Source: Promethearchaeia archaeon | Lineage (GTDB): Archaea; Asgardarchaeota; Lokiarchaeia; Sigyniarchaeales; SOKP01 | DNA length: 15,541 bases | Direction of reading: 5' to 3' | Assembly (NCBI GenBank): GCA_029856045.1 | Contig: JAHQWG010000052.1 | Coordinates: 1-15,541 of the forward strand | Shown here: positions 1,196-12,010 of the stretch, piece after piece | How the letters are laid out: the number at the start of each line of letters is the position of its first letter | Numbering within the stretch: position 1 is the stretch's first letter | The notes under the pieces: model-generated | Told to the model about the DNA's origin: nothing | The model's input: only the letters and a program-made list of their open reading frames with translations | Database searches by the model: none | Made by a program: the position numbers and the translations under genes

Positions 1196-2869
1196 TTATT
1201 TTTTGTGTGAAACTATAATTTCAGTTCCGAATAATATCTTTTTTGCTGTTTCAAAAGCAAAGTTATAGTCGAACACCTTCTTTCCCTTGGTATTAGTTGC
1301 ATCCTTAAAAACCTGGCTTTCGACTTTATATTTTAAACGCCCAATATCCAGAGCACCGATCCCATAAATACCCGGATAAATCTCATCGTCATTAGAATTT
1401 GGTTTTAATCCTTCAATCCCATATGGTGGAACTAAATTAATATCGAGAACAATCTTGTTTGGCGGGAGTTTTTCCATTAATTCTTTTGATATCATTTGAA
1501 TTCCGGCTTTTGCAACTGACCAAATTATATCGGCATCTTTTACTATTTCAAATTTCTCCTCATCAGTGGATGCCGCTACTCCAATTATTTCAGAAGCATC
1601 TTTACCAGCCTTTTCCGTTAATTTCTTTGCAAGTTCTTTTACAGCCTTTTCCCGACGAGAAATTATTATGGGTGTAGCGTGAAATTTAGCCGCGAGTATC
1701 GCTCCAATTTGCCCTACTGGTCCAGTACCCCCTAAAATGACTATTTTCTTTCCTGTAAAATCTGTTATTCCATGTTTTCTTGCAATTTCTATGGTTTTAG
1801 CAACAACTGCAGAAGCTGTAGTATGAGCTCCACGGGGATCTATAATTACAGGCGCCTCAAAAGGTGGAACAAGCGCATTTTGTATCTCTTCTGCAACTCT
1901 CTCTCCTTCATCAACATTTGATCCACCAACAAAATAAACGGTTGGAGCATTTGGTTTTCGTGAAAACATAGCATCTTGGACCAACTTTGCGACTCTATCA
2001 GATGTAATTTTGCAAAATGGAATAACAACATTAAATCCTGCATCATAGGCCATATTTATATCAAAAGGTGAAGCATATTCATCAGTATCAAAAAAATACA
2101 AAATACTCTCCGCTTTCTCTTTTTTCTTTACCTTTATTGGAATTATTTCAAGAACAGAGGTATTTATTAGTTCTTTTACTGAAGAAATATCATCCAAAGA
2201 TTCTTTAGCAACTTTTTTGATATTAATTTGTTCAATTTCAAGTCCTAAGTCATCTGCAAGATTTGTAATGCCTTCAAAATGTCTTTTATCACTTATAAAC
2301 AGTGCCTTTAAATGTTTTTTTTCGACTTTTTTCGCCAATTCAAAAATCCCCATCATCATCCAAGATTCGCGGATTTTATATCTTATCTCATTTTCCTGCT
2401 TATTATATTCATCAGATAAATGTTCTCTCCACATTACTAACTGTTGATAATGAGGATCATTCGGATGAATTCCGCCTTTTTCTTTTAATTGTTGAATTTC
2501 TGTATTTAATTTTTGAATAAGATCTTTACTACCATTCAATCCCGAAGAAATATAATTTAGAGCATTCTCGGGGATGCCTATCATTTTGTAGGGAATCTCA
2601 TTCTTTCTGAATAAATCTACGAATTCATCTTCATAAAGCAGTCTATCATTTGACCTCATCCCTTTATCCTCTACTACGAAGTCAGGGCTATATTTATTTA
2701 CTAAATTTTCAACAAATTCCATATATTCCTTAGAAACAAAAAATAAATTTGCAGCAATGGCTTCTTCCCCTGTCGGCTCTTCTAACGACCAATCTATCGG
2801 AAATTCACTCTCAACTAATACTAACTTAAGAGTCTTATTTTTTAAAGGTTTTAATTCTAAAGATTGCAT
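1196..2869 (-). CDS. mtdB: Fusion of an N-terminal TraB/Tiki-like domain (~230 aa) and an NAD(P)-dependent methylene-H4MPT dehydrogenase (MtdB/MtdA family); NADP-type fingerprint
   Basis: C-terminal half has DTDEYASPFDINMAYDAG, LVQDAMFSR, DPRGAHTTASA, GGTGPVG and DINLVPPYGIEG, all typical of MtdB/MtdA. GAGGT SD lies upstream of the ATG. Confidence 0.8.
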   Translation of the reverse strand: MQSLELKPLKNKTLKLVLVESEFPIDWSLEEPTGEEAIAANLFFVSKEYMEFVENLVNKYSPDFVVEDKGMRSNDRLLYEDEFVDLFRKNEIPYKMIGIPENALNYISSGLNGSKDLIQKLNTEIQQLKEKGGIHPNDPHYQQLVMWREHLSDEYNKQENEIRYKIRESWMMMGIFELAKKVEKKHLKALFISDKRHFEGITNLADDLGLEIEQINIKKVAKESLDDISSVKELINTSVLEIIPIKVKKKEKAESILYFFDTDEYASPFDINMAYDAGFNVVIPFCKITSDRVAKLVQDAMFSRKPNAPTVYFVGGSNVDEGERVAEEIQNALVPPFEAPVIIDPRGAHTTASAVVAKTIEIARKHGITDFTGKKIVILGGTGPVGQIGAILAAKFHATPIIISRREKAVKELAKKLTEKAGKDASEIIGVAASTDEEKFEIVKDADIIWSVAKAGIQMISKELMEKLPPNKIVLDINLVPPYGIEGLKPNSNDDEIYPGIYGIGALDIGRLKYKVESQVFKDATNTKGKKVFDYNFAFETAKKILFGTEIIVSHKK

Positions 2870-2891
2870 TTTTTAATTTACCTCATATTTT

Positions 2892-3590
2892 TTATTCAAT
2901 TTGTGTTGCGTGTTGTCCTATTTTTTTGAAAACTCTATTAACATTAATTTTTTCAACTTTTATTTCTAAATCATCTGCTAGAGATTTAATTCCATCAGAA
3001 TGTTCCTTATCACAGATAAATATTGCTTTTAGATTTTTCTTCTCAATCTTCCTTGCTAAATCAAGAATCCCCATCATCATCCAAGATTCTCGGACTTCAT
3101 ATCTTATCTCATCTTTTTGTCTGGAATATTCATCTTGTAAATGATCCCTCCACGCAATTAATTGCTGAAGGTTAAAATCGTTAGGATGGACACCACCCTT
3201 CTCTTTTAAATTCTCAATTTCTACTTTAATTTCTCTTAATAGACCTACATCTCTATCTATTGTCGAAGCAAGATAACCCAGAGCATTCTCGGAAATATCT
3301 ACCATTTTATATTGAATGTTAAATTTCCTGAATAAATCTACTAAAGCATCTTCATATTGTAAATCATCGCCTGAGCGCATTCCTTTCTCTTCCACTATAA
3401 AATCAGGCTTGTGATCTTTTACCAGATCTTCAATAAATTGCAAATATTCTTTAGACATAAGAAATAAATCCGCAGTAGTCATTTTTTTATCTGATGATAA
3501 TTCCATCGACCAATCTATCGGAAATTCACTCTCTACCAATAACAATTTAAGAGTTTTATTTTTTAAAGGTTCTAATTCTAATGTTTGCAT
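2892..3590 (-). CDS. Stand-alone paralogue of the N-terminal domain of the Mtd fusions (TraB/Tiki-like, unknown function)
   Basis: Colinear with aa 1-220 of 1196..2869 (ESEFPIDW, PDFIVEEKGMRS, KEKGGVHPND, RESWMMMGILD, ICDKEH). AGGAGGT SD upstream. Confidence 0.85.
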   Translation of the reverse strand: MQTLELEPLKNKTLKLLLVESEFPIDWSMELSSDKKMTTADLFLMSKEYLQFIEDLVKDHKPDFIVEEKGMRSGDDLQYEDALVDLFRKFNIQYKMVDISENALGYLASTIDRDVGLLREIKVEIENLKEKGGVHPNDFNLQQLIAWRDHLQDEYSRQKDEIRYEVRESWMMMGILDLARKIEKKNLKAIFICDKEHSDGIKSLADDLEIKVEKINVNRVFKKIGQHATQIE

Positions 3591-3608
3591 TTCTTTTTTA
3601 CCTCCTGT

Positions 3609-4238
3609 TTAAGTTAAAATTAAAATTGATTTTTTTTTCATAATTTTGTTAGTCTCAAAATTAATAACCTTGATACTTTGAGCTTCAAATAACTTTTTCA
3701 ATTCAGAAAACAATTCTTTATGGGTAAAATGGATAAAATTAATCTCATCTTCATTGATCATCTCAATTATATCTAATACTTTTTTTATGATCCATAAAGG
3801 CCTTAGTTTTAAGTCTAAATAATCTTCTTTGTCTTTTACTTCACTTTTTAAGAGATGTATCCATGAGAACAGGTTTTGAGCCTTTAATGACTCTTTTTCA
3901 GCAGGATTTAAACAGAGGTTTTCATATTCTCCTTGAAGTTCCTCAACTTGTTCTTTTTTATCTGATATCTCATTTAATAAATGGATTTTTGCGTAATCAG
4001 GGATATTAACATAATAATACGGCGTCTCAAAATTATCAAAAAACTGTGCTAAAGGAGTCTGATAAATCTTTTTTAATTCATCATCGCATAAATCAATCGT
4101 AGCAAAATTGAATTTTTTTCCTCTTAAGAGAATCAATAAATTATCATATTCTGCATCTGATAATTCTTTACTTTCCTTTTCTATTAGACATAAAGAAACT
4201 TTCTTTTCTTTTATCGGTTTTAATTCCAATACTTCCAT
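3609..4238 (-). CDS. Hypothetical protein, divergent member of the same domain family; first gene of operon 2
   Basis: Clear paralogue of 6260..6919 (FNFATIDL, IPDYAK, EISDKKEQ, AEKESLKAQNL, WIIKK). Same MxxLELxP start as the other family members. Confidence 0.8.
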   Translation of the reverse strand: MEVLELKPIKEKKVSLCLIEKESKELSDAEYDNLLILLRGKKFNFATIDLCDDELKKIYQTPLAQFFDNFETPYYYVNIPDYAKIHLLNEISDKKEQVEELQGEYENLCLNPAEKESLKAQNLFSWIHLLKSEVKDKEDYLDLKLRPLWIIKKVLDIIEMINEDEINFIHFTHKELFSELKKLFEAQSIKVINFETNKIMKKKSILILT

Positions 4239-4355
4239 TTTTTTTATCCCATTCCAAATTTTTAGGTATTTTTTTTTTCTTGAATTTTTTTATTACTATT
4301 TAATTGATTTAAATGCAATAATTTAATATATTTGATAAGAGGAATTTTGGACAAC

Positions 4356-4375
4356 TTGACTAATTAATTAGTCAA
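4356..4375. promoter_or_regulatory. Perfect 20-bp palindrome TTGACTAATTAATTAGTCAA, putative operator upstream of operon 2
   Basis: Exact inverted repeat in intergenic DNA about 120 bp upstream of ATG 4238. A counterpart lies at 7030-7049. Confidence 0.65.
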
Positions 4376-4382
4376 ATTGACC

Positions 4383-4512
4383 ATTTTTTTTATCATAAAT
4401 TAAAAGAATTTCTATTTTATAACTAGTTGTGAAAAAAATTTGACAAAAAAAGTTTGATAAAATTGACAATTGGAATAATCAAGAAAACAATTTTTTTTAT
4501 CATAAATTAAAA
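4383..4512. repeat. 23-bp exact direct repeat ATTTTTTTTATCATAAATTAAAA (4383-4405 and 4490-4512)
   Basis: Two identical copies read directly in the intergenic region between the two Mtd operons. Confidence 0.75.
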
Positions 4513-4562
4513 TATGCTTTTTAAGAATAAAATTAAAAAAAAAAAGTGAGTTTTGAATTTAT

Positions 4563-6245
4563 TTAGCGAGATATTACCATTTCTTTGCCAAATAATATTT
4601 CTTTTGCAATTTCAAAAGCAATATTATAATCGAATATTTTTTTTCCTTTAGTCTTAGTAGCTTTTTTAAGAATAGAACTTTCAGTTACAGATTTTAAATG
4701 GCCTATTCCTAATGCCCCGATTCCAAAAATTCCGGGATATATTTCTTCATTATCATATTTTGGTTTTATACCTTCAATACCATACGGTGGAACCAAATTA
4801 ATGTCTATAACGATTTTATTTTTTGGCAACTTACTCATTAATTCTATTGATAAAATTTGGATTCCTGCAGCTGCTAAAGACCAGATTATGTCAGCATCTT
4901 TGACTATTTTAAATTTTTGCTCATCCGTTATAGCGAATTCTCCAACTATTTCAGAAGCGCCTTCTCCTGCCTCTTCAGTTAATTCTTTTGCAAGTTTCTT
5001 AACGGCTTTTTCACTCCCTTTATCCCATGTCTCAACTAGAACTGTTTTACATTTTTGTTTTGCCGCAATTACTGCTGCAATTCGTCCAACTGGACCCGTG
5101 CCTAATACAACCGCTTTTTTTCCAGAGATATTATTTATCTTATGTTTCATTGCAACTTCTAGAGTTTTCGCGACTATTGCCGAAGCTGTAGTATGAGATC
5201 CTCGTGGATCTATAATTACAGGAACTTCGAAAGGTGGCACTAAGGACTTCACAACTGTTTTCGCAATTTTTTCACCTTCTCTTACATTTGCCCCACCAAT
5301 AAAAAAACTGGTCGGTGCTTTCGGTTTTCGTGAAAATATCGCATCCTGTACAAGTTTTGGCACTTGTTCAGCTTTTACATTGCTAATAGGAATGACTACA
5401 TCAAACCCTGCATCATATGCCATATTAATATCAAAGGGAGATGCATGCTCATCTGTATCTAAGAAATATACAATTTTTTCTAAAGAATTTTTATTCTTAA
5501 TTTTAACGGGAGCAACTTCCATAAGTGATACCTTTACGAATTCCTTTATCGTATTTGGTTTCTCTAAATCTCCAATATTTAAAATATTTTTCTTAACTTC
5601 AAATTTTTGAATTTCTACTCCAAGGTCATCTGCAAGGGTTGTAATCCCATTAAAATGCCTTTTATCACAAATAAATAGACATTTTAAGTTTTTCTCTTTC
5701 TGTTCTCTTGCCATATCAAGAATCCCCATCATCATCCAAGCTTCACGGATCTTATACCTTATTTCTTCCTCTTGATTTTCGTATTCCGCCTGTAAATATT
5801 CTCTCCACGTTAATAATTGCTGAAAATAGTGATCATTAGGATGAACCCCTCCTTTTTCTTTAATTTTTTCAATTTCTGCTTTAATCCCCTTTAAAAGTTC
5901 TACATTCTTGTTTATTGCTGAAACGAGATAACCAAGTGCGTTTTCTTCAATGTCTACCATTTTATAAGGTATTTTAAAATCTCTAAATAAATCTACAAAA
6001 GCATCATCATAATGTAATTTATCACTGGAACGCAATCCTTGTTCTTCAACTGCAAAATTTGTTTTATATTTCCGTAACATATCTTCAATAAGCTTAAGAT
6101 AATCTTTTGACATAAAACTGAAATTTAAAGATTGTTCAAGCTGCTCTTTTGTTGGTTCCAACCACCAACCAATTGGAAACTCACTTTCCATTAATGTTAT
6201 TTCTAATTTCTGGTTTTTTAATGGCTTTAATTCAAGTACATTCAA
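4563..6245 (-). CDS. mtdB: Fusion of an N-terminal TraB/Tiki-like domain and an NAD(P)-dependent methylene-H4MPT dehydrogenase (MtdB/MtdA family); NAD-type fingerprint
   Basis: DTDEHASPFDINMAYDAG, LVQDAIFSR, DPRGSHTTASA, GTGPVG, DINLVPPYGIEG. Full-length paralogue of 1196..2869. TTG start lies 10 nt after GGAGG, the same spacing as the ATG at 3590. Confidence 0.8.
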   Translation of the reverse strand: MNVLELKPLKNQKLEITLMESEFPIGWWLEPTKEQLEQSLNFSFMSKDYLKLIEDMLRKYKTNFAVEEQGLRSSDKLHYDDAFVDLFRDFKIPYKMVDIEENALGYLVSAINKNVELLKGIKAEIEKIKEKGGVHPNDHYFQQLLTWREYLQAEYENQEEEIRYKIREAWMMMGILDMAREQKEKNLKCLFICDKRHFNGITTLADDLGVEIQKFEVKKNILNIGDLEKPNTIKEFVKVSLMEVAPVKIKNKNSLEKIVYFLDTDEHASPFDINMAYDAGFDVVIPISNVKAEQVPKLVQDAIFSRKPKAPTSFFIGGANVREGEKIAKTVVKSLVPPFEVPVIIDPRGSHTTASAIVAKTLEVAMKHKINNISGKKAVVLGTGPVGRIAAVIAAKQKCKTVLVETWDKGSEKAVKKLAKELTEEAGEGASEIVGEFAITDEQKFKIVKDADIIWSLAAAGIQILSIELMSKLPKNKIVIDINLVPPYGIEGIKPKYDNEEIYPGIFGIGALGIGHLKSVTESSILKKATKTKGKKIFDYNIAFEIAKEILFGKEMVISR

Positions 6246-6259
6246 TTCATTTTTACCTC

Positions 6260-6919
6260 CTATTTTATAAATTGATTTGAAGTTATTACATTATTTTTAA
6301 CACTGAAAGTTCGATCTGAGATTTCAGTGTTTAAATTATGAATAATAACACTTATTTTGAATTCCTGAAGCAATTTTTCTATTTCAGGAACTAATTCTTC
6401 AGGACTAAAATGCAAAATAATTAAGGAATTTGTTTTATTAGCTCTTGCGTTATCAAATATTTTCTTAACGATCCATTGAGGCTTAACTTTTAATTTTAAA
6501 TAATTTTCTTTATCATTAACCTCATCTTTTAATAAAACTATCCAAGAGTCTAAATTTTGAGCCTTAAATGAATCTTTTTCGGCAGAATTAGATAATAAAT
6601 TTTCATATTCCGCCTCTAATTCATTAATCTGTTCTTTTTTATCGGATATTTCTTCTGATAAATAACCCTTTGCATATTCAGGGATATCAACACCCCAAAA
6701 TTGGATTAATAAATCTTCCAAAAACTTTGCTAAGGGTGATTTATTTAATTCTTTTAAATTTTTACCCATTAAATCTATAGTGGTAAAATTAAATTCACAA
6801 TTTTGTAAAAAATCCCCTAAATTTCTTGCTTCTACTTTTGATAATTTATGATTTTCTTTATTAATTATATATACAATAATCTTCTTATTTTCAGGTTTTT
6901 CAATTTCTAAAACTTCCAT
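6260..6919 (-). CDS. Hypothetical protein, divergent member of the TraB/Tiki-like family; first gene of operon 1
   Basis: Paralogue of 3609..4238. ATG at 6919 (MEVLEI) matches the paralogue's start (MEVLEL) better than the track's 6928. Its TAG stop overlaps the GGAGG SD of the next gene. Confidence 0.8.
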   Translation of the reverse strand: MEVLEIEKPENKKIIVYIINKENHKLSKVEARNLGDFLQNCEFNFTTIDLMGKNLKELNKSPLAKFLEDLLIQFWGVDIPEYAKGYLSEEISDKKEQINELEAEYENLLSNSAEKDSFKAQNLDSWIVLLKDEVNDKENYLKLKVKPQWIVKKIFDNARANKTNSLIILHFSPEELVPEIEKLLQEFKISVIIHNLNTEISDRTFSVKNNVITSNQFIK

Positions 6920-7026: not shown

Positions 7027-7052
7027 ATTTTAACAATAATTGTTGTTAAAAT
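7027..7052. promoter_or_regulatory. Near-perfect 26-bp palindrome with core TTAAC-N10-GTTAA (7030-7049), putative operator in the divergent intergenic region
   Basis: ATTTTAACAATAATTGTTGTTAAAAT has one mismatched pair. Same geometry as 4356-4375. Confidence 0.6.
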
Positions 7053-7416: not shown

Positions 7417-9948
7417 ATGGATATATATTCAATTTTAGCTCATCCATTTAGGAGGAAGATTTTACTACTTCTTGATAAGGAAAGTTATATCGCTTACACG
7501 GATTTGATGGACAGGTTAGGTTTAGAGACTACTGGGCAATTAAATTTTCACCTTAAAAAACTTGGGACTTTAATAAATAAAGATAAAAAATCCTATTTTC
7601 TCACGGAGGACGGAAAACGAGTTATAAATTTAATGAATATTGATAAAAAGATTTTGGCAGGCGAGGATATTGAATATTTAGATAAAGTTGGTAGTGAGAT
7701 TAATCGTGTAGGGGTTATTATTTGTAAGTGTAATACTGAAATTTCAAATCTTATAAGTATTAATGCACTTGAAAATTACCTTAAAAGAATTCCCAATGTG
7801 GTTACTGTGAAGATTTTTGATAATCTTTGTCAGGAGAAAAATATGGAACAGATTACTAAATGGTCTAAGGATAATTATTTGAATAAGATTGTTATTGCTG
7901 CGTGTTCTCCAAAAACTCATCTGCATATATTTGAGAGAATTTTTGATGGAGTTATTGATAAAGTTAATATTGAGATTGCTAACATCCGGGAACAATGTTG
8001 TTGGGTACATCAAAAGGAACCCACTTTAGCGTTAAAAAAAGCACAAATTTTAATTGAAGCGGCGGTTGAGCGCGTAGCATTACAAAAAGATGTTCAAGTA
8101 AAAACAGTTAAGATTGAAAAAAGTTGTGCTATTTTGGGTGGCGGAATTGCAGGGATGACACTTGCATCAAGTTTAGCAAAGGCTGGGATTAAAGTCTATT
8201 TAATTGAAAAATCCCCAACATTAGGAGGTAAAATTGCCAGGTGGAGTAAAATTTATGGAATGGGTGATTGTTCAATTTGTCTTATGTCAGAAATGATAGG
8301 TGAGGTCGTAAAAGAAAAAAATGTCGAAATTTATACCAATACTGAGATTGAGAAAGTTTCGGGTGAGGTAGGAAATTTTTCGATTGATTTAATTAAAAAG
8401 CCCCGATATATTGATGAAAAGAAATGTACTGGATGTAAAAGATGTATTGAAATTTGTAGTATAGAAAAAAGTAATCAATATGAATTTGGATTAACAGCAA
8501 GGAAGTTAATTTATATTCCTTATGTTCAATCTTATCCATATGCTCCAGTGATTGACCAAGAAGATATTGAAACTTGCCGACAATGTAGAATTTGCGAGCG
8601 AGCTTGCAACAATAATGCGATTGATTTGGATCAAAAACTTGAAAATATAAGGATTAGAGTTGGAACAAAAGTAATAGCAATAGGTGCAGATTTTTATTCT
8701 GATCTAAAGTCTTATAAATATAATCCCCAAAATGATATAATTACAACACCGGAATTTGAACGTATTCTATCAGCGGATGGACCAACAGAAGGTAAAATTT
8801 TGAAACTTTCAGATGGGAAACCCCCGAAAACTATCTCAATAATTCAATGTTTAGGCCCATTTGATGATTTGCCGGAACATTGTAGTACTCTCGCTTTAAA
8901 ATATTTGGAATCTATTTATTTACAGATTCCAGATTGTAAACTCAATATATTTTTTGATTTGAATAAAATTAGGAAATCTAATGGGTTCATGTTAGACCCA
9001 TCTGATGAAAAATTTCATTATTATGACAATATTGAAATTATAGAGAAAGGAAATAAGAAAATAATTATTTCTGATTCAGAGCAGTATCCCTCTGATATGA
9101 TCGTGTTAAATGTCAATTTTGTTCCAAATAAAGATTTAAAAGAACTTCGAAAGACATTAGATTTTACATTAGACGATCATGGTTTTATGAGTGAAGAAAC
9201 GCTGGCATCAGGTATTTTTGGTGTCGGTTCAATTAAAGGTCCATTAGATTATAATTCAGTGATCTCTTCTTCTAATGATATCGCTATTAAAATTATTTCA
9301 TTGTTATCAACTGATTATTTAATTACAGAATTTAGCGGTATCGAAATCAAAGAAGAGAATTGCGGATTGTGTGGTTTATGCATATTATCCTGCCCTTACA
9401 ATGCAATCACAATTGAGGCAGATAAAATTACTATTGATAAATTCAAATGTAAAGGATGCGGAACTTGTGTAAGTGTTTGTCCCACAAATGCACTTGACTT
9501 AAACATTGATACTACTGAAAAGATACTGAAATCAATTGAAGTATATTCTAAATTCAATTTAAAACCAAAAATAGTTGCATTCTGCTGTCGTTCTTGCGGA
9601 TATGGTGCAGCCGATGAAGCTGGTCTAAAGAAACTTTCCTATAATCCCAACATCTTTATTATTAAAGTTCCATGCACAGGGCGGGTAGATGCGAGTTTAA
9701 TTTTTAAATCTTTCAAATTTGGATTTGATGGAGTAATGATTATTGGTTGCAGAAAAGATTCCTGCCGATTTATAAATAGTGTAGATCAAGTAAAACAAAA
9801 AGTTAAACTTTTAAGAGAAGTTTTAGGTCCTATTGCTGAAAAACGAATAATACGTAAATCATTAAGCGCCGTCGAGGGCAATAAATTTGCAGAGATTGTA
9901 AATTCTTTTTATCAGAGATTATCGGAGGAGATTAAAAATGAAACCTAG
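7417..9948 (+). CDS. hdrA: Winged-helix (ArsR-like) DNA-binding domain fused to heterodisulfide reductase subunit A and a C-terminal MvhD domain
   Basis: aa 1-75 wHTH (LAHPFRRKILLLL...TGQLNFHLKKL...YFLTEDG). HdrA motifs CKC, AACSP, NIREQCCWVH, GGGIAG, DCSIC, four CxxCxxCxxxC ferredoxin motifs and EFERIL..DGPT. MvhD motifs FCCRSCGY, VPCTGRVD and DGVMIIGC...C. AGGAG SD upstream. Confidence 0.9.
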   Translation: MDIYSILAHPFRRKILLLLDKESYIAYTDLMDRLGLETTGQLNFHLKKLGTLINKDKKSYFLTEDGKRVINLMNIDKKILAGEDIEYLDKVGSEINRVGVIICKCNTEISNLISINALENYLKRIPNVVTVKIFDNLCQEKNMEQITKWSKDNYLNKIVIAACSPKTHLHIFERIFDGVIDKVNIEIANIREQCCWVHQKEPTLALKKAQILIEAAVERVALQKDVQVKTVKIEKSCAILGGGIAGMTLASSLAKAGIKVYLIEKSPTLGGKIARWSKIYGMGDCSICLMSEMIGEVVKEKNVEIYTNTEIEKVSGEVGNFSIDLIKKPRYIDEKKCTGCKRCIEICSIEKSNQYEFGLTARKLIYIPYVQSYPYAPVIDQEDIETCRQCRICERACNNNAIDLDQKLENIRIRVGTKVIAIGADFYSDLKSYKYNPQNDIITTPEFERILSADGPTEGKILKLSDGKPPKTISIIQCLGPFDDLPEHCSTLALKYLESIYLQIPDCKLNIFFDLNKIRKSNGFMLDPSDEKFHYYDNIEIIEKGNKKIIISDSEQYPSDMIVLNVNFVPNKDLKELRKTLDFTLDDHGFMSEETLASGIFGVGSIKGPLDYNSVISSSNDIAIKIISLLSTDYLITEFSGIEIKEENCGLCGLCILSCPYNAITIEADKITIDKFKCKGCGTCVSVCPTNALDLNIDTTEKILKSIEVYSKFNLKPKIVAFCCRSCGYGAADEAGLKKLSYNPNIFIIKVPCTGRVDASLIFKSFKFGFDGVMIIGCRKDSCRFINSVDQVKQKVKLLREVLGPIAEKRIIRKSLSAVEGNKFAEIVNSFYQRLSEEIKNET

Positions 9949-10699
9949 TTTCTTAATCGAATCATTGACTTCTTGTAGTGGTTGTATCTCAACAATGATT
10001 TCATTAGATATCTTTCCTCAATTTCTTGATAAGGTAAATCTCGTTCGTTGTTCATTTATGAGAGATGAAAATAATATCACTGAAAATGATATCGCTTTAA
10101 TTGAGGGGTGTGTTTCAGAGGAAAAACAAATCGATATTCTTAAAAATATTCGGAGTAAATCCAAGAGAGTAATTGCTTTAGGAACTTGTGCCGCTTTTGG
10201 AGGAATGCTTGCACTCTCAACGGTAAAACAAGCAGAACCTATATCTAATTATATTGAAATAGATGGAATAATTCCTGGATGTCCACCACCTTCTAAATTA
10301 TTAGGTAATTGTATTATTAGATTGTTAGAAAATAAAGATATAGTTTTACCTGAAAAAAACGTTTGTGCAGATTGTGAATTTAGAACTGATGATATTGAAA
10401 AAAAATTTAAGAGACGAATCAATGCAATAATGCCGAAAAATTATAATGTAGATAGTGAAATTGAAGATAAGCGTTGCTTTTTAGAAAGGGGAATTTTATG
10501 TTTGGGACCAATAACTAGAGATGGTTGCGAGTGTAAGTGCATTAAATTTGGCCTTCCTTGTGATGGGTGCATGGGACCAATTAAAAATGATTTCACCTCT
10601 AATACCATTAATTTTTTGAGCACGGTAAATCTTGCCAAAGGTCTAAGGAAATATAAAGGAATTTTCTATCGTTATTCAAAACCAAAAACCAAGAGGTAA
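9938..10699 (+). CDS. mvhG: [NiFe]-hydrogenase small subunit, group 3 (MvhG-like)
   Basis: SCSGC, IEG, GTCAAFGG, IPGCPP, CADC, CFL, CLGP, GCECKC and PCDGCMGP motifs. Overlaps the end of hdrA by 11 nt. Confidence 0.85.
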   Translation: MKPSFLIESLTSCSGCISTMISLDIFPQFLDKVNLVRCSFMRDENNITENDIALIEGCVSEEKQIDILKNIRSKSKRVIALGTCAAFGGMLALSTVKQAEPISNYIEIDGIIPGCPPPSKLLGNCIIRLLENKDIVLPEKNVCADCEFRTDDIEKKFKRRINAIMPKNYNVDSEIEDKRCFLERGILCLGPITRDGCECKCIKFGLPCDGCMGPIKNDFTSNTINFLSTVNLAKGLRKYKGIFYRYSKPKTKR

Positions 10700-10705
10700 A
10701 AAATT

Positions 10706-12010
10706 ATGAAGAAAGTAGTTGATGTATGCACCCGGGTTGAAGGACATGGAAATATAAAAATTTTACTTCAGAAGGATGAAATTACAAGTGTGAATTTTGA
10801 TCTTGAGATATTTCGAGGGTTTGAAAATCTATTGATTGATAAAAGGTTGATTGATGTTCCTAGAATTGCATCAAGAATATGTGGATTATGTCACGCATCA
10901 CAAACAATAGCAAGTTGCAAAGCAATAGAGAGCATGTATGAAATTGAACCCTCTCTACAATCAGTTCTTTTACGGCGATTATTAATGATTGGTGAGTTGA
11001 TAAAATCACATTCAATGCATTTCTTTTTTCAAGCATTTCCCGACCTTTTTGTAATTTTGGATAAACAACCAAAACCACTCTCACTGAATGAATTAGTCCA
11101 TTTTGATTCTAAATTAACTTCAAATATGTATGAATTAATAAAAATCGGCAATGAAATTGTGAATTTATTTGGCGGAAAATCCGTTCATTTAATAACACCC
11201 ATTATTGGTGGTATATTTTTTTCACCCTTAAAAAAAGAAATAAATCTTGCACGGAGATATCTACAAAATTCTATAAATAATTTAAAATGGGTTATTGAGC
11301 GTTTCATAGAGATATTTTCTCAATTTGATCCTCCTGTTGTTTATTCCTTACCAAATCCTGCTTATATGGGAATGCATAATGATGAAAAATTTGATCGGTA
11401 CAGTGGAATCTTACGATTGGCACAAAATAATAAAATTATCGCTGATTTTCCCGTATATAAACATTCACAATATTTTGATAAGCAGGAAGATTTACATGGA
11501 ATTGATTTCTATCTAAAAAACGACCAAAACATTCTTGTTGGCCCACTCGCACGGAATAAAATAATTAAAGATTATGGAATAGATGAACTGCAATCCTATA
11601 TTGGTCTTTTTAATAAAGAATGGCAAAATAGTATTTTATTCTCAAATTTTATTAGACTAATTGAAATGTTGTTTTTTTCTTATGAAGGTTTATCAATTCT
11701 AGATGAAGCTGAATTGATACAAAAAAATGATATAAGTCCCATTAATTTTTTAAAAAATAATGAAGGAATCGGCATGGTTGAGGCACCCCGAGGAACGCTT
11801 ATACATTATTATCATGTAAATAAAAAAAGATTAATTGATAAAGTGAAACTTTTTGTTGCAACTGAAATTAATTTGCCCATTATTGATGAAATCCTTACAA
11901 CACAAAGCCAAGAATTGTATGAAAGAACTGGTGATTTAAATCAGATCAAAAAACAAGCACAAATGATTATAAGATCGTTTGACCCCTGTATCTCTTGCGC
12001 AACACATTAA
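10706..12010 (+). CDS. mvhA: [NiFe]-hydrogenase large subunit, group 3 (MvhA-like), lacking the C-terminal extension
   Basis: TRVEGHG, RGFE, L1 RICGLC, VEAPRGTLIH and L2 DPCISCATH followed directly by TAA. Confidence 0.88.
   Translation: MKKVVDVCTRVEGHGNIKILLQKDEITSVNFDLEIFRGFENLLIDKRLIDVPRIASRICGLCHASQTIASCKAIESMYEIEPSLQSVLLRRLLMIGELIKSHSMHFFFQAFPDLFVILDKQPKPLSLNELVHFDSKLTSNMYELIKIGNEIVNLFGGKSVHLITPIIGGIFFSPLKKEINLARRYLQNSINNLKWVIERFIEIFSQFDPPVVYSLPNPAYMGMHNDEKFDRYSGILRLAQNNKIIADFPVYKHSQYFDKQEDLHGIDFYLKNDQNILVGPLARNKIIKDYGIDELQSYIGLFNKEWQNSILFSNFIRLIEMLFFSYEGLSILDEAELIQKNDISPINFLKNNEGIGMVEAPRGTLIHYYHVNKKRLIDKVKLFVATEINLPIIDEILTTQSQELYERTGDLNQIKKQAQMIIRSFDPCISCATH

Follow-up and report, generated by a model that had tools for sequence, protein, structure and literature searches.

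Two groups of described proteins provide the closest comparisons for the genes considered here. The methylene-tetrahydromethanopterin (methylene-H4MPT) dehydrogenases MtdA and MtdB of Methylorubrum extorquens (PDB 1LU9, 6TLK, 6TGE) are single bacterial proteins of ~290 amino acids (aa) that start at the first strand. TIKI proteins have a core of five parallel strands flanked by helices, with an active site formed by two histidines and two glutamates (2His/2Glu) and a conserved arginine (PMC6254334); the superfamily as used here comprises Tiki, EreA/Bcr135, ChaN, HopBA1, RRSP, PMT C1/C2 and TraB/PrgY/GumN (PF01963). We found no report of a TIKI member in constant association with a dehydrogenase. 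In the 15,541-nucleotide stretch studied here (the window), which is the whole of contig JAHQWG010000052.1 (15.5 kb) from the 3.34 Mb, ~30% G+C genome of a Promethearchaeia archaeon (Asgard, Promethearchaeota; GCA_029856045.1), an unannotated domain is present in five adjacent genes at positions 1196-6919, two of which fuse it to an MtdA-like dehydrogenase (Mtd). Our best explanation, to which we give an even chance of being correct, is that this family of ~210-245 aa, present in Asgards and Bathyarchaeia, is a very divergent cytosolic offshoot of TraB/Tiki proteins which occurs only as a partner of MtdA-like Mtd, with one type of the domain (B) serving as a non-proteolytic binding or assembly module and the other (A) as its inactive partner.

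The five genes lie on the (-) strand in two operons separated by a spacer of 324 nucleotides (nt), with the order A2, a gap of 14 nt, B-Mtd2 in operon 2, and A1, a gap of 18 nt, stand-alone B, a gap of 22 nt, B-Mtd1 in operon 1. Across the whole genome, copies of the domain and matches to the Mtd domain Mpt_N (PF09176) are confined to these five genes. The features of the locus are as follows.

6260-6919, (-) strand: type A paralogue A2 (219 aa), starting with the ATG at 6919 and leading operon 2; match to the B profile at 3.6e-14; Glu67 and His197 lost
4563-6245, (-) strand: B-Mtd2 fusion, 560 aa
5550-6245, (-) strand: putative type B TraB-like domain of B-Mtd2, aa 1-232; B profile E 8.5e-103; E20, E22, E67, E68, Y106, R167, E168, W170 and H197 present
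5502-5525, (-) strand: linker arm LMEVAPVK directly ahead of the Mtd core of B-Mtd2, similar to the arm at the N-terminus of A and B domains
4563-5438, (-) strand: MtdA-like NAD(P)-type methylene-H4MPT dehydrogenase core of B-Mtd2; Mpt_N 94.6 bits; 65% identity to the Mtd1 core
3609-4238, (-) strand: type A paralogue A1 (209 aa), leading operon 1
2892-3590, (-) strand: stand-alone type B domain, 232 aa, the copy used for structural models; in the tree, sister to the B domain of B-Mtd1
1196-2869, (-) strand: B-Mtd1 fusion, 557 aa
2174-2869, (-) strand: putative type B TraB-like domain of B-Mtd1, aa 1-232; B profile E 6.5e-104
2132-2155, (-) strand: linker arm VLEIIPIK directly ahead of the Mtd core of B-Mtd1
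1196-2068, (-) strand: MtdA-like dehydrogenase core of B-Mtd1; Mpt_N 86.6 bits; full-length match to MtdA
7417-12010, (+) strand: divergent hydrogenase operon of an HdrA-MvhD fusion, MvhG and MvhA; Pfam FlpD, Fer4, Oxidored_q6 and NiFeSe_Hases

An initial sequence-only reading of this stretch had described five tandem paralogues with a colinear layout and a common start, and this is borne out: the five open reading frames share one domain of ~210-230 aa, and all five proteins begin with M-x-x-L-E-(L/I) followed by Pro and Lys residues. The motifs quoted in that reading for type B, SKEY..F(V/I)E.LV....PDF.VE, IPYKM, RE.WMMMG and LFI.DK.H..GI, are present with small variations among individual copies. 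Pairwise identity is 51-57% within the set of three B copies and 48% for A1 against A2 (3e-56). Identity between A and B is 27% (BLASTP E 3e-13), and profile-profile comparison of the two types gave a probability of 99.9% and P 6e-33 over 199 columns; by these sequence comparisons types A and B are homologous, the relation on which the earlier reading depended. Type A lacks two inserts that are specific to B, and an exhaustive search for it returned just 62 representatives, nearly all of 190-220 aa. The domain had been described as unannotated and the fusion as undescribed, and both descriptions held: Pfam, NCBIfam and PDB-sequence profile searches gave no match for the N-terminal domain, the public names of the proteins that carry it are 'hypothetical' or plain Mtd, and our literature searches on the fusion found no description of it.

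The fusion of two paralogues to Mtd was likewise confirmed, with Mpt_N at aa 268-347 of both long proteins (cut-off, 27 bits; score, 86.6 bits in B-Mtd1 and 94.6 bits in B-Mtd2). Over its full length, the C-terminal part of 304 aa aligns with the MtdA structures 6tlk and 1lu9 (residues 2-292 of 304, E 7e-33), and the dinucleotide-binding glycine motif, GGTGPVG in Mtd1 and LGTGPVG in Mtd2, aligns with AGTGPVG of MtdA. Judged from sequence, the C-terminal parts are MtdA-like NAD(P)-type methylene-H4MPT dehydrogenases, sharing with MtdA and MtdB an Mpt_N domain and a Rossmann domain with G-x-G-x-x-G. Unlike the bacterial enzymes, the archaeal core is preceded by a domain of 230 aa and a conserved arm, or has these encoded just upstream. 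Downstream of the glycine motif (window positions 1651-1700 and 5050-5100, respectively) Mtd1 reads I-I-S-R-R-E-K and Mtd2 reads L-V-E-T-W-D-K; the sequences suggest that the two may differ in nicotinamide preference. The bathyarchaeal Mtd has been noted as being of the methylotroph type, with nothing more said of it in that report (PMC7886697).

The tie between the domain and Mtd is a direct observation. The domain was found in 53 of 201 Asgard genomes, from at least six families, and in all 53 carriers Mpt_N is fused to it or encoded just downstream, the commonest arrangement being one B-Mtd fusion, 555-610 aa long. Mtd occurs in the absence of the domain in seven genomes, and an eighth that had shown Mpt_N only proved on inspection to encode a divergent fusion. 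A search by pattern, covering 185,579 species genomes, turned up 167 relatives among Asgards (Loki, Hel, Hermod, Hod, Jord and Sigyn lineages) and Bathyarchaeia, the bathyarchaeal copies showing 34-37% identity; a distribution limited to Asgards is ruled out by these copies. Two fusion-bearing contigs (L062 and L111) are titled as bacterial (Nanopelagicaceae, Sulfotelmatobacter), and are probably mis-binned in public metagenome-assembled genomes. No copy of the domain was found in the genome of the cultured Promethearchaeum syntrophicum.

The sequence-only reading had proposed a TraB/Tiki-like pattern in the domain, and comparison of profiles is consistent with a distant relationship. A TraB profile was built from PF01963 proteins of related Asgard genomes and compared by hhalign with four versions of the domain alignment. 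Type B alone with 21 sequences gave a probability of 28.9% and P 5.9e-4 over 115 columns, and with a wider set 53% and P 1.3e-4 over 38 columns; types A and B together (83 sequences) gave 77.8% and P 1.9e-5 over 164 colinear columns; and addition of Bathyarchaeia to A and B gave 17.5% and P 1.4e-3 over 42 columns. One C-terminal register is common to all four versions, placing R167-E-S-W-M171 on R200-N-x-Y-M204 of TraB and D194-x-x-H197-x-x-G200 on G225-x-G-H228-x-x-G. In the 164-column alignment E67 is also placed on the invariant E50 of TraB, and Phe23 on the invariant first histidine, His26, so that E67, R167, M171 and H197 pair with TraB invariant residues E50, R200, M204 and H228. Models of the stand-alone B domain from AlphaFold2 (AF2), with predicted local distance difference test (pLDDT) scores of 79.7 and, with a deeper alignment, 87.0, contain five strands alternating with helices and a helical hairpin of 80 residues. 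The models suggest the strand and helix order of TraB/PrgY/GumN proteins, with a helical insert between strand 3 and the helix bearing the arginine, and the motifs are colinear, with strand 2 ending in Glu, followed by R-x-x-(W/Y)-M and (G/D)-x-x-H-x-x-G. The domain differs from these proteins in having Phe or Tyr at the first catalytic histidine, in a 20-residue insert with a conserved Trp after strand 1, and in being cytosolic, with neither a signal peptide nor a membrane anchor seen. On this evidence from sequence, remote homology of the domain to TraB/TIKI is likely.

The pattern of residues at the putative site was counted over 41 B domains and 42 A proteins. At position 23, equivalent to the first histidine, 34 B domains have Phe, 6 have Tyr and a single copy (from family f19) has His, while A has Asn, Asp or Ser. 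At position 67, 37 B domains have Glu and 4 have Asp, as against Ile or Val in A; position 68 is Glu in 40 B domains and Asp in 40 A proteins; position 167 is Arg in all 41 B domains and Arg or Lys in 40 A proteins; and position 197 is His in 40 B domains and Leu or Ile in A. B has Y106 and W170 without exception and conserves E20, E22 and E168 in at least 90%, and no pocket residue is altered in 12 Bathyarchaeia copies. The expectation that type B had lost the first histidine and retained the glutamate, the arginine and the last histidine thus describes the family well, the first histidine being absent from 40 of 41 copies, with Glu or Asp at position 67 and Arg at position 167 in 41 of 41 and His at position 197 in 40 of 41. 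The corresponding expectation that type A had lost nearly all of these residues was supported as well, positions 67 and 197 being changed in A and position 167 being Arg or Lys in 40 of 42. In RRSP, catalysis depends on each of the 2His/2Glu residues and on the arginine (PMC6254334), and B lacks the first of the two histidines. Conservation of B across two phyla without the first histidine therefore indicates, at the level of sequence, that B is under selection for a specific site which is no longer a canonical TIKI hydrolase site, and that A is degenerate. In possessing a second, fully degenerate paralogue, the system resembles the inactive case of PMT C1/C2 within the superfamily.

These features are consistent with a mechanism in which type B would be the original form, usually placed at the N-terminus of Mtd, its first catalytic histidine now replaced by Tyr or Phe. 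Type B keeps Glu67/Glu68, Arg167 and His197 together with an acidic and aromatic putative pocket of E20, E22, Y106, E168 and W170, and would use these to bind a ligand or a short peptide arm, thereby assembling or regulating Mtd. Mtd would in this way be placed beside hydride-shuttle partners, an HdrA-Mvh hydrogenase in Asgards and the F420-dependent Mtd (F420-Mtd) in Bathyarchaeia. Type A would be a later duplicate lacking the pocket, and would probably pair with B as an inactive subunit.

Several findings weigh against this explanation. None of the five proteins or 21 homologues matched PF01963 by hmmscan up to E 1, and the domain does not join the catalytic TraB/TIKI family; the TraB/Tiki pattern of the earlier reading stands as probable remote homology at the profile level (hhalign P 1.9e-5 to 1.4e-3, against at least 0.026 in controls), but not as family membership. 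The full-length hhalign match depends on the alignment used, as addition of Bathyarchaeia reduced it to the 42 C-terminal columns at a weaker P of 1.4e-3. The strict conservation of Glu, Arg and His together with five acidic residues would be compatible both with a binding site and with an active enzyme of altered mechanism. For RRSP, the second His and Glu, His4030-Glu3930, have been proposed as the catalytic pair (PMC6254334); their equivalents are H197 and E67, both of which B retains.

The main rival to a binding module is an active TIKI-type hydrolase, in which type B would operate with a modified site of His197, Glu67, Arg167, Tyr/Phe23 and extra glutamates on a peptide or an Mtd-linked one-carbon (C1) carrier species, for example a wrongly formylated pterin side-product, the fusion then being a bifunctional enzyme and A a regulatory pseudo-subunit. 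It accords with the conservation of E67 (as Glu/Asp), E68, R167, E168, H197, Y106 and W170 at 98-100% in the 41 B domains, unchanged in Bathyarchaeia, with the drift of those residues in paralogue A of the same genomes, with the catalytic assignment of the RRSP pair equivalent to H197/E67, and with the family f19 copy that has His at position 23. However, the other 40 B copies lack this first histidine, the mutation of which abolishes RRSP activity, and the pathway shows no gap for a new hydrolase, Mch, Ftr, F420-Mtd and FolD being encoded in the genome and Mch in nearly all carriers. We regard an active hydrolase as unlikely, although far from negligible.

That the domain is unrelated to TraB/Tiki, a generic five-stranded alpha/beta fold with a helical hairpin whose motifs are alike by convergence or chance, we consider doubtful. 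The sequence-only reading had proposed a Foldseek comparison of predicted models, and a search of the PDB with two AF2 models gave no match at E <= 1e-3, the top rows being ribosomal protein S2 and HARP. Against an unrelated fold, the same register from the Arg to the Gly-x-x-His motif recurs in four hhalign versions at P 2e-5 to 1.4e-3, compared to 0.026-0.69 for the controls (reversed sequence, P ~0.3; 30 block shuffles, P at least 0.026; four unrelated real families, the MvhG, MvhA, PhoU and Mtd alignments, P 0.22-0.69), and the matched positions are exactly the invariant residues of TraB. An independent feature search, using a protein language model, placed the TraB/GumN cluster nearest among clusters named by Pfam with a score of 0.82, a result to be taken as a lead only. 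Among Foldseek rows below threshold, structural alignments were longest for ChaN and HopBA1, at ~145 residues versus ~115 for methylases.

A third proposal, that the domain is a non-orthologous methenyl-pterin cyclohydrolase making the fusion a FolD-like bifunctional enzyme, is backed by no more than an analogy, a domain resembling a hydrolase being fused to a methylene-pterin dehydrogenase, and is very improbable, given that the source genome encodes canonical Mch (E 3e-109) and FolD (E 2e-65), that Mch is found in 135 of 201 Asgard genomes including almost every domain carrier, and that the catalytic histidine is lost. The source genome also encodes Ftr and F420-Mtd; FTHFS and FTCD_C were searched for in it and not found. 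Replacement of Mch or FolD by the domain is ruled out by these genes and by Mch across carriers, and the domain therefore fills no cyclohydrolase gap. In 13 genomes (the source genome and 12 relatives) PF00590 (tetrapyrrole methylase) gave no match at E <= 1e-10, a strict threshold at which 14 of 14 control genomes were positive; diphthine synthase has been reported as lacking in Asgards, with which the absence of PF00590 at this threshold would fit.

Returning to a binding or assembly module placed beside redox partners, the synteny of the locus is directly observed. An operon of HdrA-MvhD, MvhG and MvhA adjoins the module in 13 of 19 Asgard loci examined (a count that takes in the window); in families f7 and f12 these three genes are followed on the same strand by B-Mtd as the fourth. 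At other loci the neighbours are HdrD-like, HdrA, MvhD and FrhB-like genes, or else NfnB-like ones. In the majority of the Bathyarchaeia loci that were examined, a gene for F420-Mtd (PF01993) lies directly upstream of the fusion on the same strand (L108, L112, L115, L121 and L123, at about 3000-6750; E 1.5e-119 for the one copy scanned with Pfam), with Ftr and FrhB-like genes nearby and a PhoU-AbrB gene convergent downstream. The closest analogy for this arrangement is the pair of Hmd and F420-Mtd in methanogens, in which cycling of the pterin by two methylene-H4MPT dehydrogenases that use different hydride partners could move reducing power from one carrier to another (PMC12350162), as the dehydrogenase genes adjacent in Bathyarchaeia might allow. 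The analogy is one of context only, no Hmd-Mtd complex being known.

The relationship between A and B genes bears on their proposed pairing. Type A is confined to Lokiarchaeia-type lineages, and its gene in every case immediately precedes that of B, the two being spaced by -13 to +25 nt. The putative hetero-oligomers of A and B, and the putative scaffolding, which the sequence-only reading had proposed, would have this tight gene coupling as their sole basis. Genus g4 encodes the module as three separate genes, in the order A, B, Mtd. The five-copy layout was seen in three further genomes of the genus of the source organism, and in a quick tree all A proteins group as a single clade, the B domains branch in line with taxonomy, and the stand-alone B and the B domain of B-Mtd1 are sisters. 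The array of five is genus-specific, and the ancestral and widespread form is the single B-Mtd fusion of Asgards and Bathyarchaeia; on the evidence of the quick tree, the five copies arose by duplication of the operon together with one domain duplication within the genus.

A similar short arm (hydrophobic-hydrophobic-E-hydrophobic-x-P-hydrophobic-K) precedes every A, B and Mtd module. At the N-termini of A and B (first 10 codons of all five genes) it reads V-L-E-L-K-P-L-K; the arm is kept by the split Mtd genes of other genera, and the linkers of Bathyarchaeia read Q-V-K-P-V-I-x-K. In its strict form the motif is rare: the open frames of the genome, 1.09 million residues in all, contain it just 7 times, and this locus accounts for 4 of those. 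Since the targets of TraB, PrgY and Tiki proteins are short peptides or N-termini, the binding of a basic arm by an acidic pocket is an attractive, if speculative, idea. In its fullest form, which we think improbable, a former peptidase would have turned into a socket for peptide docking, its conserved acidic Glu-Arg-His pocket binding the short basic arms, of the form hydrophobic-x-hydrophobic-x-Pro-hydrophobic-Lys, and so chaining Mtd trimers, A and B into an assembly that docks on HdrA-Mvh or F420-Mtd. In some Asgard genomes three Mtd paralogues stand in a row (L041 6325-9960, L042 6699-10196); in one genome (G156) its three Mtd paralogues carry no N-terminal domain, and the sequence MELL(E/K)(I/L)K at the start of two of the three recalls the arm of A and B, and may be the remains of a deleted domain.

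We note some further features of these loci. Two perfect palindromes, TTRAC-N10-GTYAA, are present at 4356-4375 and 7030-7049, 118 nt and 111 nt upstream of the start codons of A1 and A2, respectively (2 found against 0.08 expected), and may be a common operator for both operons. In the HdrA-like protein encoded divergently from operon 2 (7417-9948), one chain of 843 aa runs from a DUF7347 domain of winged-helix type at its start to MvhD (FlpD) at its end. The PhoU-AbrB neighbour is common to Bathyarchaeia and the Asgard families f8 and f13. At loci with split A, B and Mtd genes, a Cdc48-type double AAA ATPase is next on the same strand (L035 9401-11698, L036 9492-11756, L105 5766-8066), and at the last of these an 84-aa fragment of the domain lies beyond the ATPase.

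Asgards and Bathyarchaeia are abundant, mostly uncultured sediment archaea whose energy metabolism has been reconstructed from genes alone, with the tetrahydromethanopterin pathway at its centre. Their NAD(P)-type Mtd is nearly always accompanied by an unannotated and strongly conserved domain, beside genes for an electron-bifurcating hydrogenase or for F420-Mtd, and current maps of the pathway therefore omit a component of the Mtd step. An enzyme of one-carbon metabolism thus has a dedicated partner domain, and the presence of a conserved B and a degenerate A in one operon would provide a clean natural case of an enzyme fold put to new use. If the pocket does act as a docking socket for the arms, the methenyl/methylene-H4MPT couple would be a bound hydride shuttle between H2, F420 and NAD(P).

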